NCBI GenBank assembly: GCA_001777665.1
Contig: MFEQ01000006.1
Coordinates: 128,880-192,879, forward strand
Source: Candidatus Doudnabacteria bacterium RIFCSPHIGHO2_02_FULL_42_25
Lineage (GTDB): Bacteria; Patescibacteriota; Doudnabacteria; UBA920; O2-02-FULL-48-8
Direction of reading: 5' to 3'
DNA: 64,000 nt
In this document: positions 3,024 through 51,473 of the stretch, piece by piece
Layout: every line of letters begins with the position of its first letter
Position numbering within the stretch: the first letter of the stretch is position 1
Translations under genes and position numbers: made by a program
The notes under the pieces: model-generated
The model's input: the letters and a program-made list of their open reading frames with translations, nothing else
What the model was told of the DNA's origin: nothing
Databases searched by the model: none

Positions 3024-3066
3024 GTGGATCCCGGATCGCCCGTTGTGGCGTCCGGGATGGGGTTAA
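3024..3066. repeat. GC-rich REP-like hairpin repeat (copy 1), 3' of EamA gene
   Basis: gatcccggatcgcccgttgtggcgtccgggatggggttaaac is a near-identical reverse complement of 4908-4950. Internal hairpin cccgga...tccggg. Confidence 0.6.
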
Positions 3067-4001: not shown

Positions 4002-4238
4002 AAAAAATAAAATGCCTTATTTCAGGGCATTGGCAAAAAACACAAGCCTTCTTTCATCCAGACTATACTGTCGCCCCCGGAATTACACCGGATCATGTCC
4101 CGAATCGGGACTCGCGGGGTTTACCGCCGGTGGGGACATTCTCCCCGCCCTGAAGGTTACTTATTGCTTTTATTATATTTAGTAAATAGTAATTAGTAAA
4201 GAGTAATAAGAATTCTAGCTCTTATTACTAATTACTTC

Positions 4239-4589
4239 TTACTTATTACTCTTAAAGAACTCTCGAGCCATCTTTTCGTCTTCTTTCATCTGCTCTATCA
4301 ACTCTTCTTTGGTTTTGAATTTTATACTCGGCCGTGTTTTTTTGATCAGCTCCACTTCTAGCTCTCGATCATATAAGTTGCCTTCAAAGTCCAAAATATA
4401 CACTTCCACTTTCTGCTTTATTTCTCCAAAAGTTTCTGCGGCCCCGACAAAAACCAAAGAGGGTTTAGTATCGGCCAGCCCGAAATACAATCCGTTCTCA
4501 ATTTCGACAGGAATTTTTAAATTCGCTGTCGGAAAACCCATCTCTTTTCCCCGCCCTTTACCTTTTAACACTTTGCCTTTAAATTTCAT
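4239..4589 (-). CDS. Riboflavin kinase (monofunctional, bacterial RibF C-domain type)
   Basis: GKGRGKEMGFPTANL (PTAN motif) and EVYILDFEGNLYDRELEVEL, the riboflavin-kinase core. Overlaps the upstream gene by 11 nt. Confidence 0.85.
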   Translation of the reverse strand: MKFKGKVLKGKGRGKEMGFPTANLKIPVEIENGLYFGLADTKPSLVFVGAAETFGEIKQKVEVYILDFEGNLYDRELEVELIKKTRPSIKFKTKEELIEQMKEDEKMAREFFKSNK

Positions 4590-4967: not shown

Positions 4968-5381
4968 CTAATTGTTTCTCTTCTTTCTCATTATACTGCT
5001 CTTAAACCTATCTGGTCTAAACGCCTTCAGTCTCACCACTTTAGTCTTTAATCCATTTCTATGCAATTGAACCTTCAAATTTTTTATGTAGTCTCGTTGG
5101 TCGTAGCCTAATGCTATAACGTCTGGCTTTTCTTTTTGAATATGATCCATCGGATTTTTTAATGCTCCCAGTATTACTTTTTTGGCAATTTTCAAATCTT
5201 TCACATGCTTCAATCGTAACTTTTCACTAAAGACCGGACTAAATCCTTTTGTCTTTTTGACATTCACGTCTCGCGCTATTGAAACAATCAAATAATTTCC
5301 AAGCTTCTTCGCTTGTTTCAAAAATGAAATATGACCAGGATGTAATAAATCAAAAACCCCAAACACCATTACCTTTTTCAT
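4968..5381 (-). CDS. ribL: Archaeal-type FMN adenylyltransferase (RibL-like cytidylyltransferase-fold FAD synthetase)
   Basis: MKKVMVFGVFDLLHPGHISFLKQAKKLGNYLIVSIARDVNVKKTKG...ALGYDQ is collinear with M. jannaschii RibL ([41 protein letters not shown]...LGPDQ) as recalled. H.GH nucleotidyltransferase motif. Sits in an operon with the riboflavin kinase. Confidence 0.7.
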   Translation of the reverse strand: MKKVMVFGVFDLLHPGHISFLKQAKKLGNYLIVSIARDVNVKKTKGFSPVFSEKLRLKHVKDLKIAKKVILGALKNPMDHIQKEKPDVIALGYDQRDYIKNLKVQLHRNGLKTKVVRLKAFRPDRFKSSIMRKKRNN

Positions 5382-5455
5382 CTTGACAAGTCTCCAAAAT
5401 CTGTTATAATAGTATCAATCACGATGAGCGGGCACACCTAAGGTTCGTCCGAAGG

Positions 5456-5950
5456 TTACTCCCGCTCTTTTAATTTGCTTAGCTTATTTTCTAAATTTGA
5501 AACAAAAATAAAATATCTTCGAAACCTTCTTAGCAGAGCCGAGAATTTTCTCGAATTTGGTATGAATAATTTTAATAGTTTTTCCTGCTTCTCTAAATAT
5601 TCAATTAAACAGTGGAAATCGCCATCACCAGTAACAATAATTGCCTTATCATAATTAGGGTATTCAATCATAGAGTGAAGAACTAGCTCAGCATCAACAT
5701 TTCCTTTCGTGAATCTTTCACCTTCCTTTTTGTATTCCAAAGTTGGCTTGAAAACTAACACGTATCCAATTTTTTGCAAATAAGTATACAGTGCTTCGTT
5801 CCCAGCAACGTATCCTATAAATAAAAAGGTTTTGCTGACTTTATATTTATCTTTTAAATAAATGAAAAATCTACTGAAATCCAAGGTCCAGCCGCTATCT
5901 TTAATTGCTAAATTTAAATTTTGACTATCAATGAACGCGTAGATTTTCAT
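5456..5950 (-). CDS. NYN/LabA-like PIN-fold domain protein
   Basis: 164 aa. MKIYAFIDSQNL...AIIVTGDGDF pattern of NYN (LabA) domains. Confidence 0.65.
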   Translation of the reverse strand: MKIYAFIDSQNLNLAIKDSGWTLDFSRFFIYLKDKYKVSKTFLFIGYVAGNEALYTYLQKIGYVLVFKPTLEYKKEGERFTKGNVDAELVLHSMIEYPNYDKAIIVTGDGDFHCLIEYLEKQEKLLKLFIPNSRKFSALLRRFRRYFIFVSNLENKLSKLKERE

Positions 5951-6180
5951 ATACTCTTTTTACGCTTTCAAATTCTCGTAAGGATACTATTTCTTTTGCT
6001 TTCCAACGCAAACTCCAACCCATTTTATTTGGCTTACATAAAGCACAGGAATGTTTTTTGATTTTATACCGCTTCCGCATTAATTAACTATAGACAATTA
6101 TCCAACAACAATCAACACTTTTAGAAATTAGGTCCAATTAGCCTGCCCGCCAAAGCTTCAGCGACGACGGGATTAATTAG

Positions 6181-6232
6181 AAATTTTTCTTACTATCCCC
6201 TTATTCGCATCGACTTCGATCAGATCACGTGT
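6181..6232 (-). pseudogene. 3'-terminal stub of a ninth phosphohistidine-swivel paralog
   Basis: Minus strand reads ...DLIEVDANKGIVRKISN*, the conserved C-terminus of the array paralogs. Compare 15150-15200. Homology stops abruptly at the cassette-1 promoter. Confidence 0.6.
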
Positions 6233-6249
6233 TTTAGAAGGGCTTAGTA

Positions 6250-6278
6250 TTGACAAAAGTACGAAAATAAGCTATCAT
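6250..6278 (+). promoter_or_regulatory. sigma70-type promoter of GC-rich cassette 1
   Basis: TTGACA(6250-6255), 17 bp spacer, TATCAT(6273-6278). ~90 nt leader to the ATG at 6371. Confidence 0.6.
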
Positions 6279-6370
6279 ATTTAGTTCATATTGCACATTC
6301 CAAATTTCGGCAACACTGGCAATCATAGCAATTCAGACATTCACACTTTTGCCTGGGAGGGCAAATTAGC

Positions 6371-6850
6371 ATGCTCAAGGCTTACATTGTCACACACGGT
6401 AAACGGTACGATGGTGCCAATCCTCGCATGACACCGGAAGGGTTCGCGAAAGTCGCGAGCCAGCGTTCCAAGCTTCCGGCTACACCCTCTGAAGTCGTCG
6501 TCGGAACGGGCGATCGGCATATCGAGGTTTGCGATGCGGTCGATCTCGAACCGACCCGATACTCGGCTGTCATCGGTGGTGCCGAAGCACTCGACTCCGT
6601 GAAGCACGACGGCGAGGATATGATCGTTCTGCCCGGTGGCAAGATGATTCCCTACCACATGGACACAACCGAGAAGGATTTGGGTCCGTCCATGAGAGCG
6701 CTTGTCCTCGGGCTGAAAGACGACGCGGTCTTGTGCTCGGGTCGTCTCAGTGTGATCGCCCTCGGGCTGACGCTCGAAGAATCGAAATCGGGTGTCGTCT
6801 ATCTCGTCGAGCACGACGGGGTACAGATCTTCACTATCAGTGAAGTCTAG
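6371..6850 (+). CDS. GC-rich histidine-phosphatase (PGAM/SixA-like) family protein, divergent
   Basis: 159 aa. N-terminal YIVTHGKRYDG corresponds to the RHG catalytic-His motif (R replaced by T). Homologous in layout to 9619 and 16454 genes. Strongly GC-rich versus flanks; all other frames also open. Confidence 0.5.
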   Translation: MLKAYIVTHGKRYDGANPRMTPEGFAKVASQRSKLPATPSEVVVGTGDRHIEVCDAVDLEPTRYSAVIGGAEALDSVKHDGEDMIVLPGGKMIPYHMDTTEKDLGPSMRALVLGLKDDAVLCSGRLSVIALGLTLEESKSGVVYLVEHDGVQIFTISEV

Positions 6851-6857
6851 CATGCAG

Positions 6858-6925
6858 AAAGGCGAGTTGGTTCAACCCCCGAGGATTTATATCCTCGACT
6901 GGTTGCCACTCGCCTTTTGCTTTTG
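6858..6925. terminator. Bidirectional terminator after cassette 1 / paralog A
   Basis: aaaggcgagttgg...ccactcgccttttgcttttg with inner hairpin cgaggatttatatcctcg. The 3' tail cgccttttgcttttgtctaaattttt is identical to that at 10311-10336. Confidence 0.55.
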
Positions 6926-6926
6926 T

Positions 6927-8384
6927 CTAAATTTTTTTGACTATTCCCTTGTTTGTATCTAACTCAACTAAATCTCCATCCTTAAAAATCGACGTTGCTA
7001 TTCTTGTTCCTATTATCGAACTGATGCCTAACTCACGGCTTACTATGGCCGCGTGACAAGTCAATCCACCTTCATCTGTCACAACAGCCGCGGCCTTACG
7101 CATTGCTGGCACGAAATCTGGTGAAGTCATTGCCGTCAAAAGAATTTCTCCTTTTTTCATTTTAGATGCTTCTGCAGCGGTTAACATTCTTCTAATCCTA
7201 CCTTTCAGTATAGATTTGCTACCGACGCTCCCCACGATCCCTTTCACTTCATTAGCTTTGCTGATCTTTTCTGTATATTTTGAAAGATGCTGTTTCGCTT
7301 TCTTTCCAATTATAACTTCCAATATTTTTCCATTTTTTGAATTTACAAAAATAACGTTGTTAATCCGTTTTCTGGCCAAATCTTTTAAAATATTCATTTT
7401 CTTTTTCTTTGTTAAAAGATTAATTTCAACCAAATCCAGATATTTTAATTCTTTTAAAGTTAGCTGAGTCTGCTTTGAAATATTTCTCAATAACAAATCT
7501 ACGGCATAGTGAATTCGGAAATGAACACTTTTTCTCTCGTCAGCAGTTGTGATAAGAGTCTGGACAGTATTAATCAATCTTCTATATTTATTTAACTCAT
7601 ATTCATTAATTGTATTTTTTTGTTCTTTGGCTAACTCAAAGTTTTCCAAAAGTATTTTATCAATTTTCGATTTCAACCATTTTTTGTTTTTAACTTCCAA
7701 TGATGTGAGCGTGTCCTCAAAATACTGATTGTCCCAGTATAATGGGCCATCGTAACCAAACGGAATCCATCCAAATTTATCAGATAAATTTCGAGCTAAT
7801 TTTTTCTTATTCTTTCCAGATTTGACGGCAAGAGCTGATTTGTAACGCGCAAGCTCCTCCTGAGTGGTTAAAGAAAGAGTTCTGGGAAGAAATAGTCGAA
7901 CAATTTTTACTCTAGGAATATTCAGTTTTTCCAATTCCAAATATAAATAGTCTTTTAAAGCTTCTGCTCCCACAAACCATGGCAAGGTGTTTATTCGATC
8001 ATATTTAAACCAAAGTTTTTGTAAATAAAACAAAGACTTGATAGATTTCGTTAATGTAAAATTTCCAGTTTTTAATTGTTCAAGAAATGTTAAGACGGCT
8101 TTTTCTAATGCTTGTCCTGTTTTTAACTGGTCCCTATGTATTCGAGAAAAGTAGTTCGGATGATGAATAAAATATCTTAATAAGTGTTGAGCTATTTTAT
8201 TCCACTCCTTTTGTTCATAAATCCAAATCCCCTTACCATCTTCAAAGAATAAGACATCGCAGTTAAATTTAATCCCGTGAATTTTTAGCATCTCGGGATG
8301 ATTTTTAGAAATAGTATTCCAGACCGAGGGGAGATAATCTATATTTCTCGCTCGAGGAATTAAATATCCTTTTTTGGGTAGCAT
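6927..8384 (-). CDS. Swivel-domain paralog A: divergent N-terminal domain + PEP-utilizing-enzyme mobile (phosphohistidine) domain
   Basis: 485 aa. C-terminus GEILLTAMTSPDFVPAMRKAAAVVTDEGGLTCHAAIVSRELGISSIIGTRIATSIFKDGDLVELDTNKGIVKKI matches PF00391 (GG.TSHAAI.ARE.G.P...G). Confidence 0.8.
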   Translation of the reverse strand: MLPKKGYLIPRARNIDYLPSVWNTISKNHPEMLKIHGIKFNCDVLFFEDGKGIWIYEQKEWNKIAQHLLRYFIHHPNYFSRIHRDQLKTGQALEKAVLTFLEQLKTGNFTLTKSIKSLFYLQKLWFKYDRINTLPWFVGAEALKDYLYLELEKLNIPRVKIVRLFLPRTLSLTTQEELARYKSALAVKSGKNKKKLARNLSDKFGWIPFGYDGPLYWDNQYFEDTLTSLEVKNKKWLKSKIDKILLENFELAKEQKNTINEYELNKYRRLINTVQTLITTADERKSVHFRIHYAVDLLLRNISKQTQLTLKELKYLDLVEINLLTKKKKMNILKDLARKRINNVIFVNSKNGKILEVIIGKKAKQHLSKYTEKISKANEVKGIVGSVGSKSILKGRIRRMLTAAEASKMKKGEILLTAMTSPDFVPAMRKAAAVVTDEGGLTCHAAIVSRELGISSIIGTRIATSIFKDGDLVELDTNKGIVKKI

Positions 8385-8385
8385 A

Positions 8386-9486
8386 CTATTTTATCTTCCT
8401 CACAATCCCCTTATTTGCATCAACTTCAATAAAATCTCCATCTTTAAAAACTTTTGTAGCAATTTGTGTTCCAATTACACAAGGTTTCTTCATTTCACGA
8501 GCTGTAATCGCAGCATGAGATAAAATCCCACCTGCATCAGTTACAAATGCTGCCGCCTTATGCATGATCGGCAAAAACTCTGGTCTGGTCGCCCCTGTAA
8601 CCAGAATACTTCCTGGTTTAAAATCTTTAACTTTACTTGGATCTAATACAATTCTTACTTTTCCCGTAACTTTTCCCGGGAAGGCTATTGCCCCTTTAAG
8701 TTCTGATTTTTTCGAGGTTTGTTTTAGTAATCTTTCTATTTTAGAAATATCTGGACCAATTAGGAACTGAAACGAATCTTTTTCTCTTATTAAAACTGCT
8801 CCTGCGTCTCTTTTCTTCAGTTCGAGTTTGTTGGGTAATTTCCTTTTATTAAAATAATCATTTACTTCTTCTTTAATTAAACAAAGTAACAACTGATAAG
8901 AATACTTAGTTTCTTTACTCAGTAGTTTAACAAATCGAATCATAAAATCTTCTGTGCGGTTCAAAACTGGCTCAGCAGTTAGTCTGGCTTCTTGTAAACT
9001 TGGTAAATACTGTTTCAAGAGATCTGGATGCAAATAATCAACAACATACTTCACATTGATATGGGGATGATAGTATGCCAATACTCTTTTCCAAAATTCA
9101 TCATATAACGTTTTTGTAATTAGTCTGCCTTCGTATTGATCTATGAATTTCAAAATACCTTTAGCTTGAAATTTTAATTTATTCGCAATAACCTTAGCCT
9201 CCTTAGGATTCTTTACAATTCTTTGCGCTAGATAATTTCCCAATCGATCGCGATCAGATTGTCTCATCCATCCATTACTGCGCCCGTGAGATATAAAAAT
9301 GATTGATTGGGATTTGAATGGTTTTCCGCCAAACAAAAGTTCTTTGGTGTATTGTTGGATAAAATGCGTGCTCGTTAAAAAACTCCACCGACCATCGTAG
9401 ATTTTAGTCCAATCCTCGTGTTTAAACGATTTGATATTCATGCTACTAATTATGCCAGATAGCGCTATTATTGACAAAAGCGCCAA
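8386..9486 (-). CDS. Swivel-domain paralog B (short class)
   Basis: 366 aa. ...VTDAGGILSHAAITAREMKKPCVIGTQIATKVFKDGDFIEVDANKGIVRKIK. N-terminal region homologous to paralogs C and F. True start may be the internal ATG at 9441. Confidence 0.8.
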   Translation of the reverse strand: MALLSIIALSGIISSMNIKSFKHEDWTKIYDGRWSFLTSTHFIQQYTKELLFGGKPFKSQSIIFISHGRSNGWMRQSDRDRLGNYLAQRIVKNPKEAKVIANKLKFQAKGILKFIDQYEGRLITKTLYDEFWKRVLAYYHPHINVKYVVDYLHPDLLKQYLPSLQEARLTAEPVLNRTEDFMIRFVKLLSKETKYSYQLLLCLIKEEVNDYFNKRKLPNKLELKKRDAGAVLIREKDSFQFLIGPDISKIERLLKQTSKKSELKGAIAFPGKVTGKVRIVLDPSKVKDFKPGSILVTGATRPEFLPIMHKAAAFVTDAGGILSHAAITAREMKKPCVIGTQIATKVFKDGDFIEVDANKGIVRKIK

Positions 9487-9499
9487 ATTGTGCTATTAT
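9471..9499 (+). promoter_or_regulatory. sigma70-type promoter of GC-rich cassette 2
   Basis: TTGACA(9471-9476), 17 bp, TATTAT(9494-9499). Same tattgacaaaag context as cassette 1. ~120 nt leader. Confidence 0.6.
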
Positions 9500-9618
9500 G
9501 GATAGTTTATAATAGTTCTTTTTAAGGTATGAGTCTGTGTTTGGCTTTAATTTTTTAAAACTAGTCTCGGGCTCATACCAATAACTCACCTAACAGTTCA
9601 ACCTCGAATCAGGAGACG

Positions 9619-10233
9619 ATGATGAGAACAGTGACGTTTTATTGTATGCGGCATGGCCACCGACTCAAGGGTGGCGACGAACTCAGTAAACTGGGCTACA
9701 AGCAGGTCGAGGCATCGGCGAAGGAGCACCTCAGCGGCATCAACTTCGTCGCTACCTTCAGCAGTGGGATGCATCGAGCAAACCAAAGCGCGGCCCTGAT
9801 CCTCGGAGCGCTAGGAATTACTGAGCTGTATGTGCAGCGCGAAGAAGGTTTCAGCTTTGAATGGTTCTGGTCTGATCCTAACATGCCGAAGGTCGAGATG
9901 CTGAACTACGCGACGATCGGCGAGTACTTCGACAACATGTTTCCGCTGGCGTTTGCGACCAGAGGTCGCGTGATGCAGACGCTGTTGCATCTGGCGTCCA
10001 GCATCGTGGCCTGGTCCGGTGCCGACCGTGAAGGTCCTCTCAATGTTCTCGTCGTTTCCCATTCCCCGACGATCGACACGGCAGTACCGGAGCCGAAGGG
10101 CTTCCCGCGACTGAAGGAAGCAGACATCTGCGTCTATAACGTCTCCGTCGACGACCAGGGTCACTCAACCATCGAAAGCGCTCGCTACCTCTCGGCGCCG
10201 AAAGTCGAAGAGAACGATACAGCGAAGGTCTAG
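9619..10233 (+). CDS. GC-rich histidine-phosphatase (PGAM/SixA-like) family protein
   Basis: 204 aa. FYCMRHGHRLKGG (RHG catalytic motif), SSGMHRANQSAALI (second Arg region), VLVVSHSPTID (C-terminal His). GC-rich. Confidence 0.7.
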   Translation: MMRTVTFYCMRHGHRLKGGDELSKLGYKQVEASAKEHLSGINFVATFSSGMHRANQSAALILGALGITELYVQREEGFSFEWFWSDPNMPKVEMLNYATIGEYFDNMFPLAFATRGRVMQTLLHLASSIVAWSGADREGPLNVLVVSHSPTIDTAVPEPKGFPRLKEADICVYNVSVDDQGHSTIESARYLSAPKVEENDTAKV

Positions 10234-10270
10234 TCGAACGTGAGTCACACTCAAGGAGGGTGTGCGAATC

Positions 10271-10326
10271 AAAAAGGCGATCGGCCGAATTCCATTGTGG
10301 AATTCCCGCTCGCCTTTTGCTTTTGT
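10271..10326. terminator. Bidirectional terminator after cassette 2 / paralog C
   Basis: aaaaaggcga...(gaattccattgtggaattc)...tcgccttttgcttttg. Confidence 0.55.
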
Positions 10327-11364
10327 CTAAATTTTTCTAACTGTGCCCTTATTCGCATCTACTTCTACCGAATCTCCGTCTTTTAGAACTCTAGTAGCAT
10401 ACTTAGTTCCTACTATACATGGTTTCTTCAACTCACGGGCAGAAATTGCAGCATGTGAAAGCATACCTCCCGCATCTGTTACAAAAGCGGCAGCTTTTCT
10501 CATTAGCGGCAAAAATTCTGGCCTCGTCATTCCGGTGACTAAAATATCTCCTTTTTTAAACCCTTTTGATTCTTTAGGATCAAGTATAACTAAAGCCTTA
10601 CCCTTTACTAATCCTGGAAATGCTGGTTGACCCTTTATCTCCTCTCCTGTTTTTTCTATGCTTTTTTCAAATTTATCTGAATCTCTGCCCACTTTAAGCT
10701 GAACTAATCCATTCCTGTAAATAATAGCGCACGACTTATATCTACTCGCCAATTCCTTTTTTGCTGGAAGGTTCCCAGTTTTCCAGTACTGATCAATCTC
10801 CTCACGCGTGACATATAAAACATGTTCTTTCTTGTAGCGAGTCTTTGTTGCGATTTGCTTTGCCATTAATTCCATGAATTTTTCTGTTTCGGCAAAAACA
10901 GGTTCTGCATATAACCGCGCCTTTTGAAGCTGCGGCAAGAATTCTTTATACTTAGCGGGAGGCAAACTATCAACAACCACCTTCACTACACGATGTGGGA
11001 CGCAGTACTCATAAAGATATTTAACAAATTTATTATAGTCTTCAGCATCTATAGTTTTCTTTCTTGAAGTGACATTGATAAAATTTAGAATCTGATCGGT
11101 TTTAGCAATTAAATCCTGGGTCCAATGCAGTAGTTGTCGTTTATTCGTTACAATTTTATCAGCCAAATACTGACTGAATTTTTTATAGTTACCCGCGTTG
11201 AGATAACAAGTACTGTAACCAGAATGAGAAATGAATATCGCTCTATCAAAACCATACCCCAAAGACTTTTTGAGTAGTTTAGTATATTGATAACCGAGAT
11301 GGGAGTTATTAAGTAATTTCCAATGCCCAGCCCAATGTTTTATCCATTCTTCTCGATTACTCAT
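10327..11364 (-). CDS. Swivel-domain paralog C (short class)
   Basis: 345 aa. ...VTDAGGMLSHAAISARELKKPCIVGTKYATRVLKDGDSVEVDANKGTVRKI. N-terminus aligns with B along its length. Confidence 0.8.
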   Translation of the reverse strand: MSNREEWIKHWAGHWKLLNNSHLGYQYTKLLKKSLGYGFDRAIFISHSGYSTCYLNAGNYKKFSQYLADKIVTNKRQLLHWTQDLIAKTDQILNFINVTSRKKTIDAEDYNKFVKYLYEYCVPHRVVKVVVDSLPPAKYKEFLPQLQKARLYAEPVFAETEKFMELMAKQIATKTRYKKEHVLYVTREEIDQYWKTGNLPAKKELASRYKSCAIIYRNGLVQLKVGRDSDKFEKSIEKTGEEIKGQPAFPGLVKGKALVILDPKESKGFKKGDILVTGMTRPEFLPLMRKAAAFVTDAGGMLSHAAISARELKKPCIVGTKYATRVLKDGDSVEVDANKGTVRKI

Positions 11365-11367
11365 TTT

Positions 11368-12246
11368 TTATGTCAGGTCTAATGCTTCTTTATCTTTAAT
11401 TATTTCATCAATCAATTCCGGAGTTAGCTCCCACTGTTGATCTTTATATTTCAAGACTATATCAGTGCCTGTTTCATCCCCAACCAAATCAAGACTAAAC
11501 CCTTCGCTGAATCCAAACCCATTTTTATCTGGTAAGGACTCTATAAATTTCATAACATCGTCTCGCCCCTTTGTCTTTTCGATGACTTTCATTAAAAAAC
11601 TTTCAGTGACCGTAGCATGAGAACCCAAAAATCGTTGTAATTCATTTTGAAATTTAAGATATTTATCTGGATTGTCAGCAACTAACCGCTGAAAGTTAGG
11701 TAAAATTTCTAAATATCTCCTTACTATCTCTGCAATTCCTGCCGCTTGTCTGCTATAACTGGTGGAGGAATGATCTTTAAGTTTTCGAACAAGATCGTCG
11801 CTTTCTTCTACAGCAAATAATAAATAATCTTTTTTATTTACATAATGATCCATAGCTGCATCTTTAAATTCACCCTCCCAAACAAAATTCAATCTTTCGT
11901 CTACCATGTCCTTTCTTCCAACTTTCACCGATCCGGCCACCAACTCTTTGATGTCTTCAAGAGTTGTATCTTCTCCGATTTCGGGTTGGTCAGCCAACAT
12001 CTGGCGCATCGCGGTTTCCACAGAACGTTCACGGGAGGATCCGAATGCCACAGCCACTTCAGGATTGGGATTTTTTTCTTTGCCTACTTCGGATGCATGT
12101 TTTCTTCCTTTTTCTGTTAAACGCACTGTGGTATCGGGTTGCCCTTCTGCAGCCTTAGCTTTATCATCATGCCTAAAAAATTCCAAATGAATCGAAGCTT
12201 TGGGTAATGACTCTCGACTTTCACGACCTAAATCTCTTGTTTCCAT
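11368..12246 (-). CDS. AT-rich, in-line histidine-phosphatase-like protein (divergent)
   Basis: 292 aa. EFFRHDDKAKAAEG (RH. motif), VAFGSSRERSVETA (second Arg). Native codon usage, same strand as the array. Confidence 0.45.
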   Translation of the reverse strand: METRDLGRESRESLPKASIHLEFFRHDDKAKAAEGQPDTTVRLTEKGRKHASEVGKEKNPNPEVAVAFGSSRERSVETAMRQMLADQPEIGEDTTLEDIKELVAGSVKVGRKDMVDERLNFVWEGEFKDAAMDHYVNKKDYLLFAVEESDDLVRKLKDHSSTSYSRQAAGIAEIVRRYLEILPNFQRLVADNPDKYLKFQNELQRFLGSHATVTESFLMKVIEKTKGRDDVMKFIESLPDKNGFGFSEGFSLDLVGDETGTDIVLKYKDQQWELTPELIDEIIKDKEALDLT

Positions 12247-12259
12247 ATATTTTTATTAA

Positions 12260-13744
12260 TTATCTTAATTTTCGCACAATTCCATTGTTCGCGTCCACCT
12301 CCACCATATCGCCATCTTTAAAAACTCGAGTTGCCACTTTAGTTCCTATAATGCAGGGAATTTTTAGTTCCCTTGAAATAATTGCAGCATGTGAGGTAAT
12401 TCCACCTTCATCGGTAACAATAGCCGAGGCCTTATTCATGGCGGAAATCATTTCTGGTCTAGTCATAGAAGCTATAATTATGTTTCCCTTTTTCATCTTT
12501 TTCATATCTTGAAAAGTAAGAATGACCTTTACTGTCCCTTTTGCGATACCAGTTGAAGCCACCATCCCGGAAATCTTTTCTAATGAATTCGAAGTTTTGG
12601 GATAAATTAACTTCTTTAATTTTTTAGCATCTGGTCCTTCATAAACAAAAATACCTGAACCACGAGTAGCCACTACTGCACTTGCTTGTTTGCGCTTTTT
12701 AATCAAAACTTTCAATTTTACTTTATCGAGAGATATTAATTGAGGTAATTCATCAATATAGGTATATTTCATCTCCTCAAAAGAAATTTTTAAACGAGAT
12801 GAATATTCTTTCATAAATAAACCGATTATATTGTTAGACATCATTGAGTACTTTTTTCTTTCGTCCTGCATATAAGCAAACGCTTCTACCACTCTTATTA
12901 AAGTCTTTGACCAGCTATCTAGCTTGAGCTTTTTAATTAGGTCTTTTTTCTTTGTACCACTCTTTCTAAGTTGATATTGAGTATTTTCAATTGCCACCTT
13001 AGCCTTTTGAAGAGTTAATTTATTCAGTTGTTGACCAAAGTAAGTCGCATCCAACCAAGGAATATATGCATAATTACTATGAATCCAAAAATATTTCTTA
13101 GAATGCTCTTTGAGTAGTGATTGTTTGAGTTTTGGGTCTGTTTTTTTTAATTTTATTTTTGCTAAGTCAAGGGCTTCTGCTTTAACAAAAGATAAGTTCA
13201 CCGGCTGGATAAGAATAGTATAAAGCTCTATAAAACGATTTTTGTAGCCAAGCGAAGAAATTACTTTATCAAAATGAGGAACCAAAAATTCCTCGGTTGT
13301 CATCGTAAATGGGTCCTGGATGGCTATTCCATAACTAAATTCTTCTCCGTAAGCATCATCAAATTTTTTGTAAAATTCAAATAATTCTTGATTTGAAAGC
13401 TTTTTTAAATCTATACGAATTACCCTCGCAATAACCCTATCTAAGATTATTACTTTCTCTTCCCAAATATCGACTAATTTGTCTAAATATTTAGGATTTG
13501 CCTTCAACTTTCTTATAAACAAATCTCTTATTCTAACCGAATCCTCATAACACCAACTCCATTCTCCATGTTCCTTACTATCAAAAAAATCCATAATTAC
13601 ATTATGGGAAGTACCAAAAAACTTACGAAACTCGAAAGCCGCTCTATGCACTGGATAGTGGAAATGTAAAACACCGTGATAACCTTTTCTAAACCAGTTT
13701 AGTTTGTTTAACCCATATTTCTTAACTAATTGTGCCGGCTTCAT
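12260..13744 (-). CDS. Swivel-domain paralog D (long class)
   Basis: 494 aa. ...VTDEGGITSHAAIISRELKIPCIIGTKVATRVFKDGDMVEVDANNGIVRKLR. Overlaps E by 4 nt. Confidence 0.8.
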   Translation of the reverse strand: MKPAQLVKKYGLNKLNWFRKGYHGVLHFHYPVHRAAFEFRKFFGTSHNVIMDFFDSKEHGEWSWCYEDSVRIRDLFIRKLKANPKYLDKLVDIWEEKVIILDRVIARVIRIDLKKLSNQELFEFYKKFDDAYGEEFSYGIAIQDPFTMTTEEFLVPHFDKVISSLGYKNRFIELYTILIQPVNLSFVKAEALDLAKIKLKKTDPKLKQSLLKEHSKKYFWIHSNYAYIPWLDATYFGQQLNKLTLQKAKVAIENTQYQLRKSGTKKKDLIKKLKLDSWSKTLIRVVEAFAYMQDERKKYSMMSNNIIGLFMKEYSSRLKISFEEMKYTYIDELPQLISLDKVKLKVLIKKRKQASAVVATRGSGIFVYEGPDAKKLKKLIYPKTSNSLEKISGMVASTGIAKGTVKVILTFQDMKKMKKGNIIIASMTRPEMISAMNKASAIVTDEGGITSHAAIISRELKIPCIIGTKVATRVFKDGDMVEVDANNGIVRKLR

Positions 13745-15138
13745 TTAATTTTCCTTACCATTCCTTTACTTGTATCTACTTCGATCCTGTCACCATTTTT
13801 AAAAATTGTGGTAGCAATTTTGGTTCCAACTATACATGGCACGCCTAGCTCTCTGGAAACTACCGCGGCATGGGACATTAATCCGCCAACGTCAGTAACA
13901 ATCGCTTTGGCTTTACGCATGAGTACAATATAATCCGGTTCAGTCATGGTAGTAATAAGAACTTCACCAGCTTTCATTTTTTCAGGATTACGAGCTGATA
14001 ACATAATTCTGGCCCGACCTATCACTAAAGGTCCTCGGCTGACGGTAATTCCTGTGACACTACCCTGATTCACGTTATTTCGAGTTTGATACTTTTTGGC
14101 GATTTTCGCTGCTGCTCTACCGGTCAGAATCTTGTATTCTTTATTCTTCATCGAGATAACACAAAGTTTTTTTCTCTGATTTATTTCATCATTAGAAAGT
14201 TTTTTTCCAGTGGTATCCAGATCCACCCATTCTTCAGCAGTGTAATATTGTAAATCATTAAGAGATATTCGATATTTTCGGCTAGTCAGCCGAAGCAAGT
14301 TATCAATCTTGTAAAGCGTTCGCCAAACTTCCGCCTTACGATCATCCTGCCACCAGATAGAAAAAGATAAAATCTCTGCCTGATTGATCACAGATTTAGG
14401 TAACTTAAATTTCTTAATAATGTCAGCTTTTCTTTTCTTAACACTCTTTATGTAATTTTCAATTTTTTGTATTTCGAATTTTAACCGTTTTTTATTCAGG
14501 CCTTTCAATCTCTGATAAAAGTCATTTCTAGTCAGTCTTCTGGTTTCGTAATAACTATTTTCAATCCATCCCCAGTTTTGACTATGTTTTTCTAATAATG
14601 TCGTCAGACTTTTTTTATTTCTGGCTCTTAGTCCAGCTTTAAATAATTCTAAATCTGATTCCTGATGGAAGCTCGGTCGATCCAAAGCTAAGAGCGCTTC
14701 CAATACTTCATCCAAATTGTTTTTCGGAACAAATTTACGGATTTGATTTCTTAGAAATACTGGAGCGCTATAATTGGCAGTTTCTGGGATTAATGCAATA
14801 TTCCAAAATTGTATGAATTTATCATAAAGTTCCTTAACAGATTCAGATTGGAACTGATTTAATTCTTTTTTTGCTTTCATATAAACTTTCCAAACTTGTC
14901 TTCTTATCTGTGCAGGTAACAGCCATCTTTTAATAATCTGCAATCCGTGACGTTCGACAGCTACTTTATCCCAACGATAAGTTAATCGATCATGATCTAA
15001 TATTCCAAAGGTCCCTGGCCAAAAAATATCATAAGAGTTCAATTTTCCTGCCCAAGGCAATATAAAAAAAGAATGATACAAAATCTTTGAATCAATCGGC
15101 CCCCACTGTTCCAGTTCTTTCGAAATTGCTCTACTCAT
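13741..15138 (-). CDS. Swivel-domain paralog E (long class)
   Basis: 465 aa. ...VTDVGGLMSHAAVVSRELGVPCIVGTKIATTIFKNGDRIEVDTSKGMVRKIK. Confidence 0.8.
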   Translation of the reverse strand: MSRAISKELEQWGPIDSKILYHSFFILPWAGKLNSYDIFWPGTFGILDHDRLTYRWDKVAVERHGLQIIKRWLLPAQIRRQVWKVYMKAKKELNQFQSESVKELYDKFIQFWNIALIPETANYSAPVFLRNQIRKFVPKNNLDEVLEALLALDRPSFHQESDLELFKAGLRARNKKSLTTLLEKHSQNWGWIENSYYETRRLTRNDFYQRLKGLNKKRLKFEIQKIENYIKSVKKRKADIIKKFKLPKSVINQAEILSFSIWWQDDRKAEVWRTLYKIDNLLRLTSRKYRISLNDLQYYTAEEWVDLDTTGKKLSNDEINQRKKLCVISMKNKEYKILTGRAAAKIAKKYQTRNNVNQGSVTGITVSRGPLVIGRARIMLSARNPEKMKAGEVLITTMTEPDYIVLMRKAKAIVTDVGGLMSHAAVVSRELGVPCIVGTKIATTIFKNGDRIEVDTSKGMVRKIK

Positions 15139-15141
15139 TAT

Positions 15142-16275
15142 TTATTTAATCTTTCTCACTATCCCCTTATTCGCATCTACTTCGACTCTGTCGCCGTCTT
15201 TTAAAAGCTTAGAAGCTAATTTGGTTCCAGTAATACAAGGTATTTTCAGCTCGCGGGAAACAATCGCTGCATGACACGTAATACCCCCTTCATCAGTAAT
15301 GACAGCTTTTGCTTTTTTCATTATCGGAACAAAAAAAGGATTGGTCATTACTGTGACTAAGATATTGCCAGGTTTGAAATTATTAATTTCTTCATTTTTC
15401 AAAATGATCGAAACTGTTCCTTTAATCGAAGCTGGCCCTCGAGATGAGACAGATCCTACAATTTGGTTATGGGTAGTGCCTTTTTCGGGCAAATATTCAA
15501 AACCTTTCTTTTTAAAGAAGGTTTCTCTGGAGACTCCGGTAAAAACTGCTTTGCCAAAAAATATATAACCTTTTAATCTTGAGTGAAGCTCTTTTCGATT
15601 AGGAGAGAATGTTTGATCCGTAAGCATTTTCTCCAATTCTTTGAATGTAATGAAAGCAGAATACTTTGTCGATAAATTTCTCTTTTGCAAAAGCTCATGT
15701 CCTATACTCCGCCAATATTCAACAAGCTCCTCAATGACTCCTTCAGAGACATGTCTTGCATGTATCAATCTTTTCAAAATTTCTTTGGCTTGTTTTGGAT
15801 ATTTCTTATGAATTTCTGGAGCCCATTGATCTTGGGGTAGTAAATAACTCGCAGTATACCACGGATACATTTCTGCGACATAAATTTTTAATTTTTTGAA
15901 CCTTCCATGATCTTTAAAATTTTTATCCTTGTTCGCATTTTGAAGTAACTTTCTAATTTGTTTCGTAAGAAAGATATATCTTTTAATTCTTTGCTCGCTT
16001 AGCACACTAAGTTTGGAGTTAGCCACAGCTTTTATAAACGCTTTGGACTCTTTCGTCAATCGATAAGTTTCTAGCAATCGTCCATTGTAAACCGAAAGTT
16101 GATTTGGAACACCAGTGCCAAAAACTTCAATAAGCCTAGGATTCATATGGACTGACCACCATTCTGCCCACGCTAGTGTAAAATCACGCGTCCAAGCTAA
16201 TTTAATTTCCTTTTTCATGGTTTTATTATGACAAATAACCCCACCTATTGACAAATTGGCTAAAATGGTGTACAA
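15142..16275 (-). CDS. Swivel-domain paralog F (short class)
   Basis: 377 aa. ...ITDEGGITCHAAIVSRELKIPCITGTKLASKLLKDGDRVEVDANKGIVRKIK. By homology to B/C, the start is probably MKKEIKLAW at 16218. Confidence 0.8.
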   Translation of the reverse strand: MYTILANLSIGGVICHNKTMKKEIKLAWTRDFTLAWAEWWSVHMNPRLIEVFGTGVPNQLSVYNGRLLETYRLTKESKAFIKAVANSKLSVLSEQRIKRYIFLTKQIRKLLQNANKDKNFKDHGRFKKLKIYVAEMYPWYTASYLLPQDQWAPEIHKKYPKQAKEILKRLIHARHVSEGVIEELVEYWRSIGHELLQKRNLSTKYSAFITFKELEKMLTDQTFSPNRKELHSRLKGYIFFGKAVFTGVSRETFFKKKGFEYLPEKGTTHNQIVGSVSSRGPASIKGTVSIILKNEEINNFKPGNILVTVMTNPFFVPIMKKAKAVITDEGGITCHAAIVSRELKIPCITGTKLASKLLKDGDRVEVDANKGIVRKIK

Positions 16276-16276
16276 T
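16248..16276 (+). promoter_or_regulatory. sigma70-type promoter of GC-rich cassette 3
   Basis: TTGACA(16248-16253), 17 bp, TACAAT(16271-16276). ~175 nt leader to ATG 16454. Confidence 0.55.
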
Positions 16277-16453
16277 TGATCGTTATAATTAAGTATTTAT
16301 AAATGCCGCAAGGCGTGAATAAATCGATTGTAACTTGTGTACCTTACAATCTAATGGTATGGGTTTATGCCTCAAGTTCTCAAGAGGACTTTGGACACGA
16401 ACCCATACCAAGATCTCAACTACTCACGTTCCACTTTCGTTCTGGAGAGCGAC

Positions 16454-17047
16454 ATGAAAACTCTGACCTATCGGCGCCATTCTTTGAAGGATGGCCACTA
16501 CATCAGCAAGGCTGGCATCGAACTGGCTCGGGATGAAGCTGAGGTGTACGAGAGCAGGCCGGACGCCGTGGAATTCAGCTGCGTTTTCCACGGACCATTC
16601 GTTCGTACTGCTCAGACCGCCCTCGCCTTCTGCTGCGCACTGACAGTGACGCCGCCGGACGCAATGCCGATCATCGAAGAAATCGGCAACGACGCGATCG
16701 TCGCTCTCATCGTCAACGATGCATTCAAGGCTGCGGTCGCCAAGGGCGAGTCCAACTATCAGGCGACCGTCTCGTCCCACAGTGCAACGGAGCTCAGCGA
16801 CCTCTCACGGACGGCGATGGCAGCGGTGACCAAGATGTTCGATGCGATGAAAGACAAGAACGACGTCGGAATCGCGTTTGGTCACAGCCCGATCATCGAG
16901 CTGGCTGTATGCAACATGTCCGGCCTGCCCGACGGCTGGAATGAGCTCAATGAGATGGATGGGCTGGTCCTCGAACAGGATGACGCCGGTCAGATTCGCG
17001 TCGTGGAGCTCATCCGCGCGAACCGCGAGCAGCCGGCGACGGCGTAG
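16454..17047 (+). CDS. GC-rich histidine-phosphatase (PGAM/SixA-like) family protein
   Basis: MKTLTYRRHSLKDGHY (RHS), HGPFVRTAQTALAF, IAFGHSPIIEL. Start moved from track ORF 16367 to the ATG at 16454, which has a ggagag SD; the GC shift begins here. Confidence 0.65.
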   Translation: MKTLTYRRHSLKDGHYISKAGIELARDEAEVYESRPDAVEFSCVFHGPFVRTAQTALAFCCALTVTPPDAMPIIEEIGNDAIVALIVNDAFKAAVAKGESNYQATVSSHSATELSDLSRTAMAAVTKMFDAMKDKNDVGIAFGHSPIIELAVCNMSGLPDGWNELNEMDGLVLEQDDAGQIRVVELIRANREQPATA

Positions 17048-17078
17048 TAGAGATCACCCCCGTAAGGGGCACAACCGC

Positions 17079-17127
17079 AAAAGGCGGGCATTTCCAGGTC
17101 AATATGACTGGACTGCCCGCCTTTTTT
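17079..17127. terminator. Bidirectional terminator after cassette 3 / paralog G
   Basis: aaaaggcgggca...tgcccgcctttttt. Confidence 0.6.
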
Positions 17128-17147
17128 CATTGTTATGTTTTTATCGT

Positions 17148-18644
17148 TTATAACTTTCGAACGATACCCTTATTTGCATCCACTTCGACTTTGTCACCAT
17201 CTTTTAAAACCTTCGTTGCTATTTTGGTACCAATAATGCACGGGGTGCCTAGCTCGCGAGAAACAATTGCTGCATGAGAAGTAATGCCGCCTTGTTCAGT
17301 AATAATTGCCGCAGCTTTTTTCATCGCAGGTACTACATCAACATCTGTAGCGATACTAACCAAAATATCGCCTTGTTTCATCTTCGGCATGTCCTTTGCC
17401 CTGATGATTATTTTCACGGTTCCTTTTGCATAACCAGGTTGAACGGTTTGGCCTGTAAATTCTTTTACATTTTTATTGATCTTCGTGGCTACCATTGATC
17501 TCAACTTTTTTTCCATTGCTCCCATGTATACAGTTTCAAAACCCTCTTCAGTATAAAGGACACAATGTTTTAATCTTATAGACAAAATATTTTTATCTAT
17601 CCTGCCATTTAATAAAGCATCTTTGACTTCTGCTTGAAGCATAAATTGGAGTTGATACCTAGAAATTCCAAGACGTTTTGCAATTTCCTTGAGTAATGTT
17701 TTATGAACAAAATATAAATTTAAAAGCTGGGCGTTTCTGCGAATTAGTTTTGACAACGCAAAATCTTTGGCGTTTTCGAAAAGCCTTTTATATTGCACAG
17801 AGACTTTTAATTTTTTATAGATCTTTTTCTGCTTCTCTCTAGCGGTTTTCAAGTATTGTTCTTGCTTTGCCAATATTTTCTTGGTATTGATTCCTGTTTT
17901 CGCTAATTCGAATAATTCTTTGAGATAGTGATCCACTCCAAAGGGATCAACATTCCCAGCGTAAATGTAGCCGAGATGACCCCATTTTTGCGCATGCTTA
18001 GTTAGGGCATCTTTCAAATGCTGAGGTATAGTTCTCGCTTTAAGAAATTTTTTGTATTTCTCATGAATAACTAGGAAATCTTTCCGCTCATCGGCGACGA
18101 TAGTTTTCCTTGAGGGCGTAGTTAAAACAACAAATGCCTGTTCTGCCTCTTCTTTACTGTTACTAACTGCGTATAAATAGCTCTTTAATTTATTCGTGAA
18201 ATTATTATGAAATAAGTCTGCGGCAACCGGTATCCACCCATAGGTATAAAGTTTGGTCTGAAGCTTATCGGTATCCTTGTACAATTTCCAAAGCTGCTTA
18301 TTATTATATTTCTCAAGCGGTAACTTATCTAATTTCTTGGAAAACAAAATTAACTTATGGGACCAAGAAATAATGTTTCTATCCAGTTCTTTACCGAATT
18401 TAGGTCTTTCTAGCAATGCTCTTATAATTGATTCAGCAACTTCATTGGAGTCTTTTTCTCCAACATAAAAATCCAAAGTAAAACCTTTGTATAGTCCCAA
18501 GAACTTTTTGTATCTTTTTATAAAATCGTAACTCCAATCAGAAGCAAAACAAGAGGCCGGGACTTGGAAAAAATAAATATCGCAATCCGGAATATTTTCT
18601 CCAAAAAGCCACTTGTCCTTATCAAACAATAACTTCGGCTTCAT
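17148..18644 (-). CDS. Swivel-domain paralog G (long class)
   Basis: 498 aa. ...ITEQGGITSHAAIVSRELGTPCIIGTKIATKVLKDGDKVEVDANKGIVRKL. Overlaps H by 4 nt. Confidence 0.8.
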   Translation of the reverse strand: MKPKLLFDKDKWLFGENIPDCDIYFFQVPASCFASDWSYDFIKRYKKFLGLYKGFTLDFYVGEKDSNEVAESIIRALLERPKFGKELDRNIISWSHKLILFSKKLDKLPLEKYNNKQLWKLYKDTDKLQTKLYTYGWIPVAADLFHNNFTNKLKSYLYAVSNSKEEAEQAFVVLTTPSRKTIVADERKDFLVIHEKYKKFLKARTIPQHLKDALTKHAQKWGHLGYIYAGNVDPFGVDHYLKELFELAKTGINTKKILAKQEQYLKTAREKQKKIYKKLKVSVQYKRLFENAKDFALSKLIRRNAQLLNLYFVHKTLLKEIAKRLGISRYQLQFMLQAEVKDALLNGRIDKNILSIRLKHCVLYTEEGFETVYMGAMEKKLRSMVATKINKNVKEFTGQTVQPGYAKGTVKIIIRAKDMPKMKQGDILVSIATDVDVVPAMKKAAAIITEQGGITSHAAIVSRELGTPCIIGTKIATKVLKDGDKVEVDANKGIVRKL

Positions 18645-20107
18645 ACTTTTCTTACGATTCCTTTGTCTGCATCCACTTCAATCATATCCCCATCTTTAAA
18701 AAGCTTAGTTGCGAATTTAGTACCAATGACACACGGTTTCTTCATCTCGCGAGCAACAATTGCAGCATGAGATGTGATGCCTCCACTATCGGTAACGAAC
18801 CCACGCGCTCTGCCCATTGCGGGTAAAACATCTGGAGTTGTAGTAACCGCAACGAGAATATCGTCGTGGGTAACTTTTTGTAGATCTGGAATCCCAAACA
18901 CTAATTTCGCCCGTCCTCGTGCTTTGCCCGGGAATGCAGATTGACCCTCGATGTAATCTTGTTTAATCTCAATGGCTTTTTCAAGAATTCTACCCAAGGT
19001 CGCATCGATTTTATTTGCAGGAATAAACTTAATTTTTCTATTCGAAACAATTTTAAGCACTCGGTGCCTTCTCCTTAAAATTTCAACCGTATCTATTTTT
19101 TTACCTGAAACGAAATCTAAAATCTCGTTCCTTAGTGCATAGCGAAAAAAGTAAACAGGGACCGCATGTTTTTTTGCTAATTGAAGAAATACTGTCTCTA
19201 AAGCATATTGAATGACATGTCGAACATTTAGCCGATAGGCTTTCGTAAACATAAGCGTACGCGCTTGATCAAACATATAAATTTCGTGGTCGGATAACCC
19301 AAGATCTTTTTCTATTCTCCTTTGTTCTTTTTCTAAATTTCTGAAGTAGTTTCTATGTTCATTCAACTGCTCTTGAGCAGTTTTTTCATTCTTGAGAATT
19401 TTCCTCACTCTCTGAATAAAATCTTCATCTGTCCAAAGTGGACCTTGATAACCAAAATTTAACCACTTGTACTTTTTAGCATGGGCTTTAAATTTCTTGG
19501 AAACAACTATTTTATTGAGAGTTTTATACTGCTTTATTATTTCTAATAGTCTCAATAGCTCTGCCCAATTTAAATCAGGTTGATCGGGACTAATCAATAT
19601 TGCCAAATACTTCTGCGTGGGATTCTTGGGAGTACTATATTTCTCTAAAATTCCTGCGAGACGATTGCTGAAAAAATTGTGATCATAATCACTTACAACA
19701 GCTAAGCAGCCCAATCCGTTTAACTCAACGTAATGTTTGAACACTTGTTTTAGCCACGAAAGATATTTCTTATCATTCCACCTTCTCAAATCTTGATCAA
19801 TGACTTGATGAGCAAGTTTAAAGACAATTTGGCCATGATAAATATGCTCTTCTAAATTGCCGTGAGCATCTAGTTTTCCTTTGGTCAATCTATCTTGGAT
19901 TTTTTGGCCGAGTCTATTCCACAATTTAATATCTACACCCCATTGACCTTCATCCTGACTGACATGCATTACGGTGTTACTAAAATAGTCACCGACAAAT
20001 CGCTTTACAGATGGTGAGAACAGAAACCCATCCTCAATCATTGTCCATGAAAACAAGTTCATATTTGTTTCCATTATTAAGTTTTTTATCGAGTGCGGTT
20101 TAATCAT
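18641..20107 (-). CDS. Swivel-domain paralog H (long class)
   Basis: 488 aa. ...VTDSGGITSHAAIVAREMKKPCVIGTKFATKLFKDGDMIEVDADKGIVRKV. Overlaps the ATP-grasp gene by 4 nt. Confidence 0.8.
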   Translation of the reverse strand: MIKPHSIKNLIMETNMNLFSWTMIEDGFLFSPSVKRFVGDYFSNTVMHVSQDEGQWGVDIKLWNRLGQKIQDRLTKGKLDAHGNLEEHIYHGQIVFKLAHQVIDQDLRRWNDKKYLSWLKQVFKHYVELNGLGCLAVVSDYDHNFFSNRLAGILEKYSTPKNPTQKYLAILISPDQPDLNWAELLRLLEIIKQYKTLNKIVVSKKFKAHAKKYKWLNFGYQGPLWTDEDFIQRVRKILKNEKTAQEQLNEHRNYFRNLEKEQRRIEKDLGLSDHEIYMFDQARTLMFTKAYRLNVRHVIQYALETVFLQLAKKHAVPVYFFRYALRNEILDFVSGKKIDTVEILRRRHRVLKIVSNRKIKFIPANKIDATLGRILEKAIEIKQDYIEGQSAFPGKARGRAKLVFGIPDLQKVTHDDILVAVTTTPDVLPAMGRARGFVTDSGGITSHAAIVAREMKKPCVIGTKFATKLFKDGDMIEVDADKGIVRKV

Positions 20108-21039: not shown

Positions 21040-21163
21040 AATCTATAGGAATCATAGCTAATTTTGAGGTATTCGAAAAGGTCAACTCCGACGCACGAAG
21101 TGGTCGGAGTTCCGACATCGACTTCGTCGATCGTCGGAAAAAAAGAAGCCCCGATGACTGGAG

Positions 21164-23645: not shown

Positions 23646-23661
23646 TAAGGACTGAATCAGG

Positions 23662-51422: not shown

Positions 51423-51473
51423 GCTATACTGAAACCTACAAGACCTCACCCGAGGTCATTCACGGAGGCACTC

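Follow-up and report, generated by a model that had tools for sequence, protein, structure and literature searches.

GC-rich genes of the histidine-phosphatase fold interleaved with a split dikinase array in a Doudnabacteria genome

Introduction

Three strikingly GC-rich genes, each read against the direction of the AT-rich gene array that surrounds it, raise the question of whether they are foreign DNA or a part of the system in which they lie. The genes, called A, B and C here, are found in a window of 64,000 nucleotides (nt) from contig MFEQ01000006.1 (positions 128,880 to 192,879; assembly GCA_001777665.1) of Candidatus Doudnabacteria bacterium RIFCSPHIGHO2_02_FULL_42_25, a member of the Candidate Phyla Radiation (CPR); all coordinates below refer to this window. 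An original prediction took them for SixA-like phosphohistidine phosphatases that were repeatedly acquired as self-contained cassettes, and placed a fourth, AT-rich relative, gene D, in-line with the array. Judged from its sequence, the locus encodes a split dikinase, among the genes of which A, B, C and D, all of the histidine-phosphatase fold, are interleaved. We lean, with moderate confidence, towards reading the four as integral, long-standing cognate antagonists of this array, with paralog-specific targets, an expression that competes with that of the kinase genes and a conserved GC-richness. CPR genomes are tiny, yet ~15 kb are given here to one ATP-grasp gene, eight carrier paralogs and four phosphatases. 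If the GC-rich genes are conserved partners rather than contaminants or recent imports, they define a kinase/phosphatase system that is open to biochemical testing.

The split dikinase array

The array occupies 6927-21039 on the minus strand and is headed by a stand-alone PPDK_N ATP-grasp gene (20104-21039; PF01326, E = 3.4e-98), which is followed by eight swivel paralogs of 345-498 amino acids (aa). Their N-terminal domain is variable, and their C-terminal domain is a phosphoenolpyruvate (PEP)-utilizers phospho-His swivel (PF00391, E = 1e-22 to 1e-26 in 8/8) that keeps the (T/L)(S/C)HAA phospho-carrier motif in every paralog and is the most conserved portion of the array. Downstream of the ATP-grasp gene, all with PF00391 and all on the same strand, lie sw8 (18641-20107), sw7 (17148-18644), sw6 (15142-16218), sw5 (13741-15138), sw4 (12260-13744), sw3 (10327-11364; 2.2e-25), sw2 (8386-9441, called as 351 aa) and sw1 (6927-8384; 1.6e-22). 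Among the NCBIfam models, the ATP-grasp gene matches those of PEP synthase, rifampin phosphotransferase (RPH) and PigC over their N-terminal third, and the swivel paralogs match the same three over their C-terminal part; a sequence search of the PDB concurs with both assignments. The two components of a split PEP-utilising dikinase, a PPDK_N module and a C-terminal swivel with a T/S-H motif, are thus both found at the locus.

RPH and the two-component dikinases are built from ATP-grasp (PPDK_N), substrate-binding and C-terminal His swivel domains, and the ATP-grasp domain can be a separate subunit (PMC4844700); the hydroxyphenylethanone kinase HpeHI is one such two-component dikinase (PMC12167813). 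The array shares the ATP-grasp domain, the substrate domain, the His swivel and the option of a separate ATP-grasp subunit with RPH, HpeHI, phenylphosphate synthase and PigC/RedH. Unlike RPH and the two-component dikinases, it combines one ATP-grasp gene with eight differing carrier/substrate paralogs and holds phosphatases of its own. A full-text search of the literature returned stand-alone RPH and two-component dikinases and no description of such an array, nor was one present in the defence-system library. The system is a new combination of known parts, namely RPH-like split dikinases and PGAM-fold phosphatases.

Across the whole locus, all cassette junctions included, six contigs that stem from different samples and assemblers agree at 99.9% identity or more, which rules out the chimeric assembly against which the original prediction had advised a check. 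The six differ too little for single-nucleotide polymorphisms to give a direction of substitution. In two of them (L002 and L005) sw5 is called as two open reading frames (ORFs; 136 + 310 aa) with a single-base difference, so this paralog appears to be inactivated in part of the population. Residues 296-329 of sw7, within the variable domain, weakly match sigma-70 region 4, a helix-turn-helix (E 2e-4, below the cut-off). The 57 nt that adjoin the A promoter on its left (6183-6239, minus strand) are what remains of a swivel-gene 3' end. They belong to a direct-repeat family formed by swivel 3' ends (D2, 65-74% identity) and suggest that a ninth paralog was deleted there.

Four distant families of one fold

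Genes A (6371-6850, 159 aa), B (9619-10233, 204 aa) and C (16454-17047, 197 aa) lie on the plus strand, opposite to the array, and gene D (11368-12246, 292 aa), which carries a C-terminal extension, lies in-line on the minus strand. The four proteins have the fold of the histidine-phosphatase superfamily (PGAM, branch 1) and form four mutually very distant families that are barely or not alignable to one another. Their placement in this superfamily, as claimed at the outset, is borne out by folds and profiles, and the catalytic motifs quoted for them are present as given; they are also genuine partners of the swivel array. The Pfam check that had been suggested gave a divided answer, as B passes PF00300 with 32.2 bits against a gathering cut-off of 21.7 bits, C (17.8) and D (18.0) stay below it and A has no match. 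The latter three are therefore assigned by their predicted folds and by profiles of their families.

AlphaFold models of A and C reach mean predicted local distance difference test (pLDDT) values of 98 and 95, and all 50 of the Foldseek matches listed for each belong to the PGAM superfamily (E ~3e-7, TM 0.55-0.65). PGAM5 is the best among the matches listed for C (E 3.5e-7, TM ~0.6), next to phosphoserine phosphatase, TIGAR, PhoE, SixA and RosC; SixA is no closer than the rest, and sequence identities among these listed matches are 11-19%. A 26-sequence alignment of the C family (35-56% identity to C) has H9, R51 and H144, the last within a G-H-SP motif, invariant, and R8 of the R8-H9-S motif is kept in at least 90%. 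The D family consists of ~290-aa proteins in which R25, H26 and R74 are invariant and of which most keep a GSH motif; its profile matches PGAM-superfamily structures at 1e-6 to 1e-4 and, in hhalign, the C family with 88.7% probability. Gene B encodes a canonical His_Phos_1 protein (RHG, HRANQSA, VSHSP). A word-index homology search returned only the cluster of B itself, and a 33% homolog was found in the array of locus L073. B, C and D thus carry the R-H pair, the second Arg and the C-terminal His of the catalytic core.

Gene A stands apart as a divergent version of the fold. Its family comprised 293 cluster representatives in an exhaustive profile search, and PF00300 was matched by 7/69 aligned members (best 1.4e-5). 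The active site of this family is rearranged, with T8-H9-G10 in place of R-H-G and G124-R125 at the usual site of the C-terminal His motif; R49-H50 is conserved as well. A DJ-1/PfpI identity, to which a weak Pfam match of A (E 0.057) had pointed, was overturned by the fold search.

Membership in the SixA family, which had been proposed for these proteins, did not hold up. A, C and D have no NCBIfam match at E <= 0.01 and B weakly matches dPGM models only. SixA, the phosphohistidine phosphatase of the ArcB HPt domain and NPr, resembles them as a small protein of the His_Phos_1 fold whose catalytic His is N-terminal, and by analogy the substrate of A-D would be a phospho-His carrier domain. It differs in being one conserved enzyme, whereas the locus holds four divergent families without a match to a SixA model. 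Broad-specificity phosphatases of the PGAM5, Sts and PhoE type are comparable in structure, as seen for C, and in the R-H, R and H kept in B, C and D. They are distant in sequence, A has neither the Arg of RHG nor the C-terminal His, and the genes described here are embedded in dikinase arrays.

Public annotation labels the proteins as hypothetical. The public call for C (226 aa) begins at 16367, whereas the start at 16454 (MKTL) is conserved in the 26-sequence alignment and has GGAG upstream; the 29 extra codons (16367-16453) belong to the leader and include its hairpin.

GC composition in the window

No 500-nt GC peak in the 64-kb window is higher than the three at A, B and C (0.574-0.608; z 2.8-3.4). 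Their overall GC content is 0.57, 0.57 and 0.60 and their GC content at third codon positions (GC3) 0.67, 0.71 and 0.76, which places them at z 3.2-4.3 relative to the 57 other genes of the window (mean 0.40, standard deviation 0.085) and fully supports their description as strikingly GC-rich. Array genes have a GC3 of 0.28-0.35 and the in-line gene D one of 0.30. The GC-rich stretch begins ~40 nt inside each cassette coding sequence and stops with the terminator, and the promoters and leaders are AT-rich (GC 0.26-0.42). The further claim that all six frames are open went too far. Beside the coding frame, one antisense frame is open (0 stops in A, 2 in B and 1 in C), and the remaining frames contain 3-10.

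Several simple explanations of this composition were rejected. GC-rich non-coding RNAs do not account for it, as Rfam gave no match, the coding frame is clear (GC3 far above GC content at second positions, GC2), the protein families are conserved and the models reach the high pLDDT values given above. Structured RNA hidden in the coding sequences was dismissed on codon-shuffle controls, which gave no excess mRNA structure (z -1.7, +0.4 and -1.7). A codon bias of highly expressed genes does not fit either, since ribosomal protein genes have a GC3 of 0.35-0.40 and the cassette codons are not the usual optimal ones. A general effect of the strand was excluded by other opposite-strand genes of the window, and many at array edges, that are unenriched. 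Finally, a minus-strand gene in the antisense ORF at 6341-6853 was discarded because homologs, Shine-Dalgarno sequence, promoter and terminator fit the plus strand.

Further GC-rich genes occur in the window at 48304-51854 and 56830-58823. They encode a 317-aa protein of no assigned family (GC3 0.60), a response-regulator receiver (0.69) and purN and purD (0.58-0.59), and the first two are flanked by an IS481-type transposase and a tyrosine integrase.

Promoters, leaders and terminators

Each of the opposite-strand genes is predicted to form a separate transcription unit with a near-consensus promoter. The promoters of A (6250-6278, TTGACA-17-TATCAT), B (9471-9499, TTGACA-17-TATTAT, TG-extended) and C (16248-16276, TTGACA-17-TACAAT) are found exactly at the positions and spacings first reported. 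They match the sigma-70 consensus at 11/12 positions and are the top three matches in 5900-21700; the whole window, both strands included, holds 12 sites of 11/12 quality. The A promoter is 74% identical to that of B over 46 nt (repeat D4), and the promoter type, TATTGACAAA...TGnTAnnAT, recurs upstream of cassette homologs across many loci.

At B and C the phosphatase promoter stands back to back with a minus-strand promoter (10/12) whose -35 element overlaps the phosphatase -35 with an offset of one base. These minus-strand promoters precede the sw2-sw1 sub-operon (9449-9477, TTGTCA-17-CATAAT, TG-extended) and the sw6-sw5-sw4-D-sw3 sub-operon (16225-16254, TTGTCA-18-CATAAT). Their -10 elements end 7-8 nt ahead of the ATG of sw2 (9441) and sw6 (16218), so both sub-operons are probably leaderless. 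The same arrangement of overlapping promoters with leaderless swivel genes was found at both sites of the window and at L007, L008, L016 and L030. As the -35 elements overlap, polymerase bound in one direction should exclude binding in the other. Loading one direction at a time would couple the expression of phosphatase and kinase genes and set them in competition, as far as can be read from this geometry.

The leaders of A, B and C measure ~86, ~113 and ~171 nt, close to the range of 90-175 nt first reported. Stable hairpins are present in the leaders of B (9526-9579, plus strand, GGUAUGAG...CUCAUACC; leader minimum free energy -26.9, z -3.07) and C (16355-16410, plus strand, GGUAUGGG...CCCAUACC, inverted repeat I1; leader z -4.96), which have a common stem sequence with one compensatory pair. 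Leaders of homologs also bear long hairpins, the sequences of which are unrelated and too divergent to align. A search of Rfam gave nothing at gathering score in 6200-17200, where the single match at E <= 1 was a spurious miRNA model. For the suggestion that the leaders could be regulatory RNAs, neither an Rfam match nor sequence conservation was found; the hairpins are probably stabilising or processing elements.

Strong hairpins lie between each phosphatase gene and the convergent kinase gene, at 6854-6920 (A/sw1; dG -37.3, z -7.6), 10272-10318 (B/sw3; dG -36.6, z -3.3) and 17079-17125 (C/sw7; dG -38.1, z -5.2). Each is bordered by an A-tract and a U-tract and, placed as it is, can terminate both genes, as had been predicted. 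The terminator of each cassette would thereby also end a kinase sub-operon.

A search for repeats around the cassettes returned swivel 3' ends, the shared promoter, the leader hairpin and short scattered matches; no terminal or transposon-like repeats flank the cassettes and no integrase is adjacent. A mobile gene cassette, whether borne by an integron, a transposon or a miniature inverted-repeat transposable element, was rejected on the lack of border repeats and recombinase.

Recurrence in related arrays

C-family genes are found in or beside PPDK_N/swivel arrays at every locus with enough context. They lie on the strand opposite to the array except in the GC-rich loci L015 and L023, and their usual neighbour is a sw7-type paralog, although their position relative to sw7 varies between genomes. 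Genes of the A family are likewise array-linked and on the opposite strand (L012, L013, L105, L106 and L107). A collection of 80 metagenome loci with a sw7 alignment gave the same picture, with all 229 recognisable swivel genes co-directional, all six C-like matches and the single B-like match on the opposite strand, and D-like matches in-line. The genomes compared are old relatives (protein identity 78% for ribosomal protein S7 and 51-85% for PPDK_N). The arrangement of GC-rich phosphatase genes on the opposite strand thus recurs in distantly related CPR genomes, in the majority of the arrays studied that have such a gene, and looks like a conserved design rather than a recent foreign insertion.

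Other hydrolases accompany the C-type phosphatase at some loci, namely an opposite-strand, GC-enriched NUDIX hydrolase in L010 (11379-11813) and a HAD-family hydrolase in L008 and L010 (~10640-11456). Further types of phosphohydrolase may therefore be recruited to such arrays.

A known anti-phage defence system was rejected, as no PADLOC model significantly matched PPDK_N, sw1, sw7, sw8 or A-D, and only the neighbouring NYN protein matched a model, one for NYN. No homolog of the C family was found among viral contigs, on which ground a phage origin of this family was rejected as well.

Possible targets of the phosphatases

If the four proteins are antagonists, one ATP-grasp subunit would serve eight carrier/substrate paralogs, and the conserved His nucleophile of the interleaved phosphatases would remove phosphoryl groups installed by the array. 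The target is more likely paralog-specific, either a phosphorylated product or a phospho-enzyme recognised via its variable domain, because the phosphatases are many, evolve fast and are tied to certain paralogs (C to the sw7 type), whereas the swivel domain is highly conserved.

Alternatively, the phosphatases could hydrolyse the swivel phospho-His directly, as SixA does on its carriers, and so drain all paralogs whatever their substrates. Such a reset would agree with a fold and an intact His nucleophile that are those of SixA, with the presence of SixA among the Foldseek and profile matches, with the carrier motif retained in all eight swivel domains and with the tight, conserved linkage of phosphatase to swivel genes. 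A single conserved target, however, needs no such diversity of phosphatases, which form at least four barely alignable families and, in the case of C, diverge 3-4 times faster than ppdkN, and this counts somewhat against a shared phospho-His site. The missing SixA model match and the equal scores of PGAM5, phosphoserine phosphatase and TIGAR point the same way, and we hold a direct reset to be a serious rival, if a rather unlikely one.

Perhaps the PGAM-like His instead accepts the swivel phosphoryl group and hands it to a further acceptor, which would extend the relay. Members of the superfamily do use a phospho-His intermediate and include mutases, and the rearranged active site of A hints at altered chemistry. 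On the other hand, the opposite strand, the separate strong promoters and the promoter overlap suit an antagonist better than a pathway component, for which the in-line gene D would be the more natural candidate. A relay function is in our view very improbable.

Known dikinases offer two partial parallels for A-D as antagonists. The regulatory proteins PDRP and PSRP (DUF299) are likewise dedicated to a swivel-domain dikinase, which they switch on and off beside its catalytic His, but their fold is unrelated, they are bifunctional kinase/pyrophosphorylases acting on Thr and no DUF299 protein is encoded at this locus. Glucan water dikinase, also of the swivel-His type, works in a cycle with the dedicated phosphatases SEX4 and LSF2, which strip the phosphate from its product. 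That system is from plants, its phosphatases are dual-specificity enzymes without the PGAM fold and its genes are unclustered.

Persistence and origin of the GC-richness

Where the host is AT-rich, GC3 is 0.55-0.91 in phosphatase genes on the opposite strand against 0.22-0.6 in array genes. Within arrays, a GC3 at least 0.2 above that of the array was found in 11/21 opposite-strand ORFs as compared to 1/60 same-strand ORFs (Mann-Whitney p 5e-5), and nearly all of these opposite-strand outliers have an N-terminal RH motif or a His_Phos_1 match. In-line D-like phosphatases share the AT-rich composition of their arrays. At four-fold sites ppdkN is at the identity expected under saturation and the C family is near saturation, yet the latter keeps a GC content of 0.6-0.9. 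The divergence of C correlates with that of ppdkN (rho 0.46). A compositional anomaly of single genes that outlasts synonymous saturation is not what standard amelioration theory would lead one to expect.

Based on this comparison, the GC-richness of the phosphatase coding sequences on the opposite strand is most likely conserved and not the mark of a recent import. Maintenance within the locus, through either selection for composition or codon content or a GC-biased process acting locally, is favoured over continual replacement from GC-rich relatives because the promoters are of host type and physically interlocked, because the shift is limited to the opposite-strand phosphatases and because few members of the family lie in GC-rich contigs. 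If composition is under selection, this would be a constraint, regulatory or evolutionary, of a new kind; continual import would imply a hidden GC-rich donor pool from which the genes of one functional class are replaced in a targeted way.

Repeated horizontal transfer from GC-rich donors, possibly of anti-system genes, was the origin first proposed for the cassettes. GC content at first positions (GC1), GC2, GC3 and amino-acid usage, which is shifted toward Ala, Gly, Arg and Pro and away from Lys, all resemble those of a GC-rich genome, and the placement of C relative to sw7 is variable, both of which speak for such transfer. Against this stand the AT-rich, host-type promoters and leaders, the overlap of the B and C promoters with the adjacent kinase promoter, the absence of terminal repeats around A, B and C, and the recurrence of the arrangement across CPR arrays. 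Only 1 of ~15 C-family loci lies in a GC-rich contig, and the shift is confined to phosphatases; it never extends to the kinase paralogs, and in-line phosphatases lack it. A role as anti-system genes is further disfavoured by the absence of viral homologs of C and by its divergence, which follows, if weakly, that of the array. We regard imported foreign cassettes as quite unlikely.

Some observations nonetheless weigh against A-D as long-standing antagonists with a composition maintained in place. The cassettes prefer GCC, GGC, CTG and CCG and use codons as is generic for GC-rich genomes. GC-rich CPR hosts with full arrays exist (L023 and L073), and their phosphatases match the surrounding composition. 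The GC-rich genes between transposase and integrase in the window suggest imported DNA elsewhere in this genome. Together these three points leave room for import from GC-rich relatives. In addition, opposite-strand phosphatase genes with no or mild GC enrichment occur in L064, L071 and L107, eight swivel paralogs and four phosphatases allow no one-to-one pairing, and A, which has neither the Arg of RHG nor a C-terminal His at the usual place, may be non-canonical or inactive.

If the GC-richness is actively maintained, it could constitute a regulatory layer encoded in composition, in which the array and its antagonists answer oppositely to a global factor. Candidates for such a factor would be the activity of the array itself, codon or tRNA supply, and an RNase or silencer with a preference for AT. 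Combined with the mutually exclusive back-to-back promoters, the layer would amount to a built-in toggle between phosphorylation and dephosphorylation. We put this idea forward tentatively and hold it to be rather unlikely.

Other features of the window

Between tRNA-Pro (22358-22431, minus strand) and parB (24757-25689, minus strand), 2.3 kb (22453-24750) contain no ORF above 94 aa and hold two GC-rich islands (~22500-23150 and ~23550-24200; GC 0.53-0.58), which lie downstream of near-consensus minus-strand promoters (24303, 23554 and 23494; 11/12). No Rfam match at E <= 1 and no remnants of phosphatase genes were found in 22453-24750, and the islands, which lie close to the region of chromosome partition, may be novel GC-rich non-coding RNAs. 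Just upstream of the ATP-grasp gene, a moderately GC-rich 127-aa gene (21164-21547, minus strand; GC ~0.49) is preceded by a strong Shine-Dalgarno sequence and closed by a terminator of its own (21147-21165); an overlapping ORF that was tested had no Pfam match.

The sole perfect sigma-70 consensus of the window (12/12, TTGACA-16-TATAAT) is at 5383-5410 on the plus strand, between a cytidylyltransferase-like gene and the NYN nuclease gene (5456-5950, minus strand). It reads antisense into the latter and may drive an antisense RNA. Left of these genes, an FMN riboswitch (4042-4161, minus strand; 98 bits) precedes an EamA-family transporter gene (3063-4001) and adjoins separate genes for a riboflavin kinase (4239-4589) and the cytidylyltransferase-like protein (4968-5381). 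The transporter may import riboflavin. This gene neighbourhood also flanks the arrays in other Doudnabacteria.

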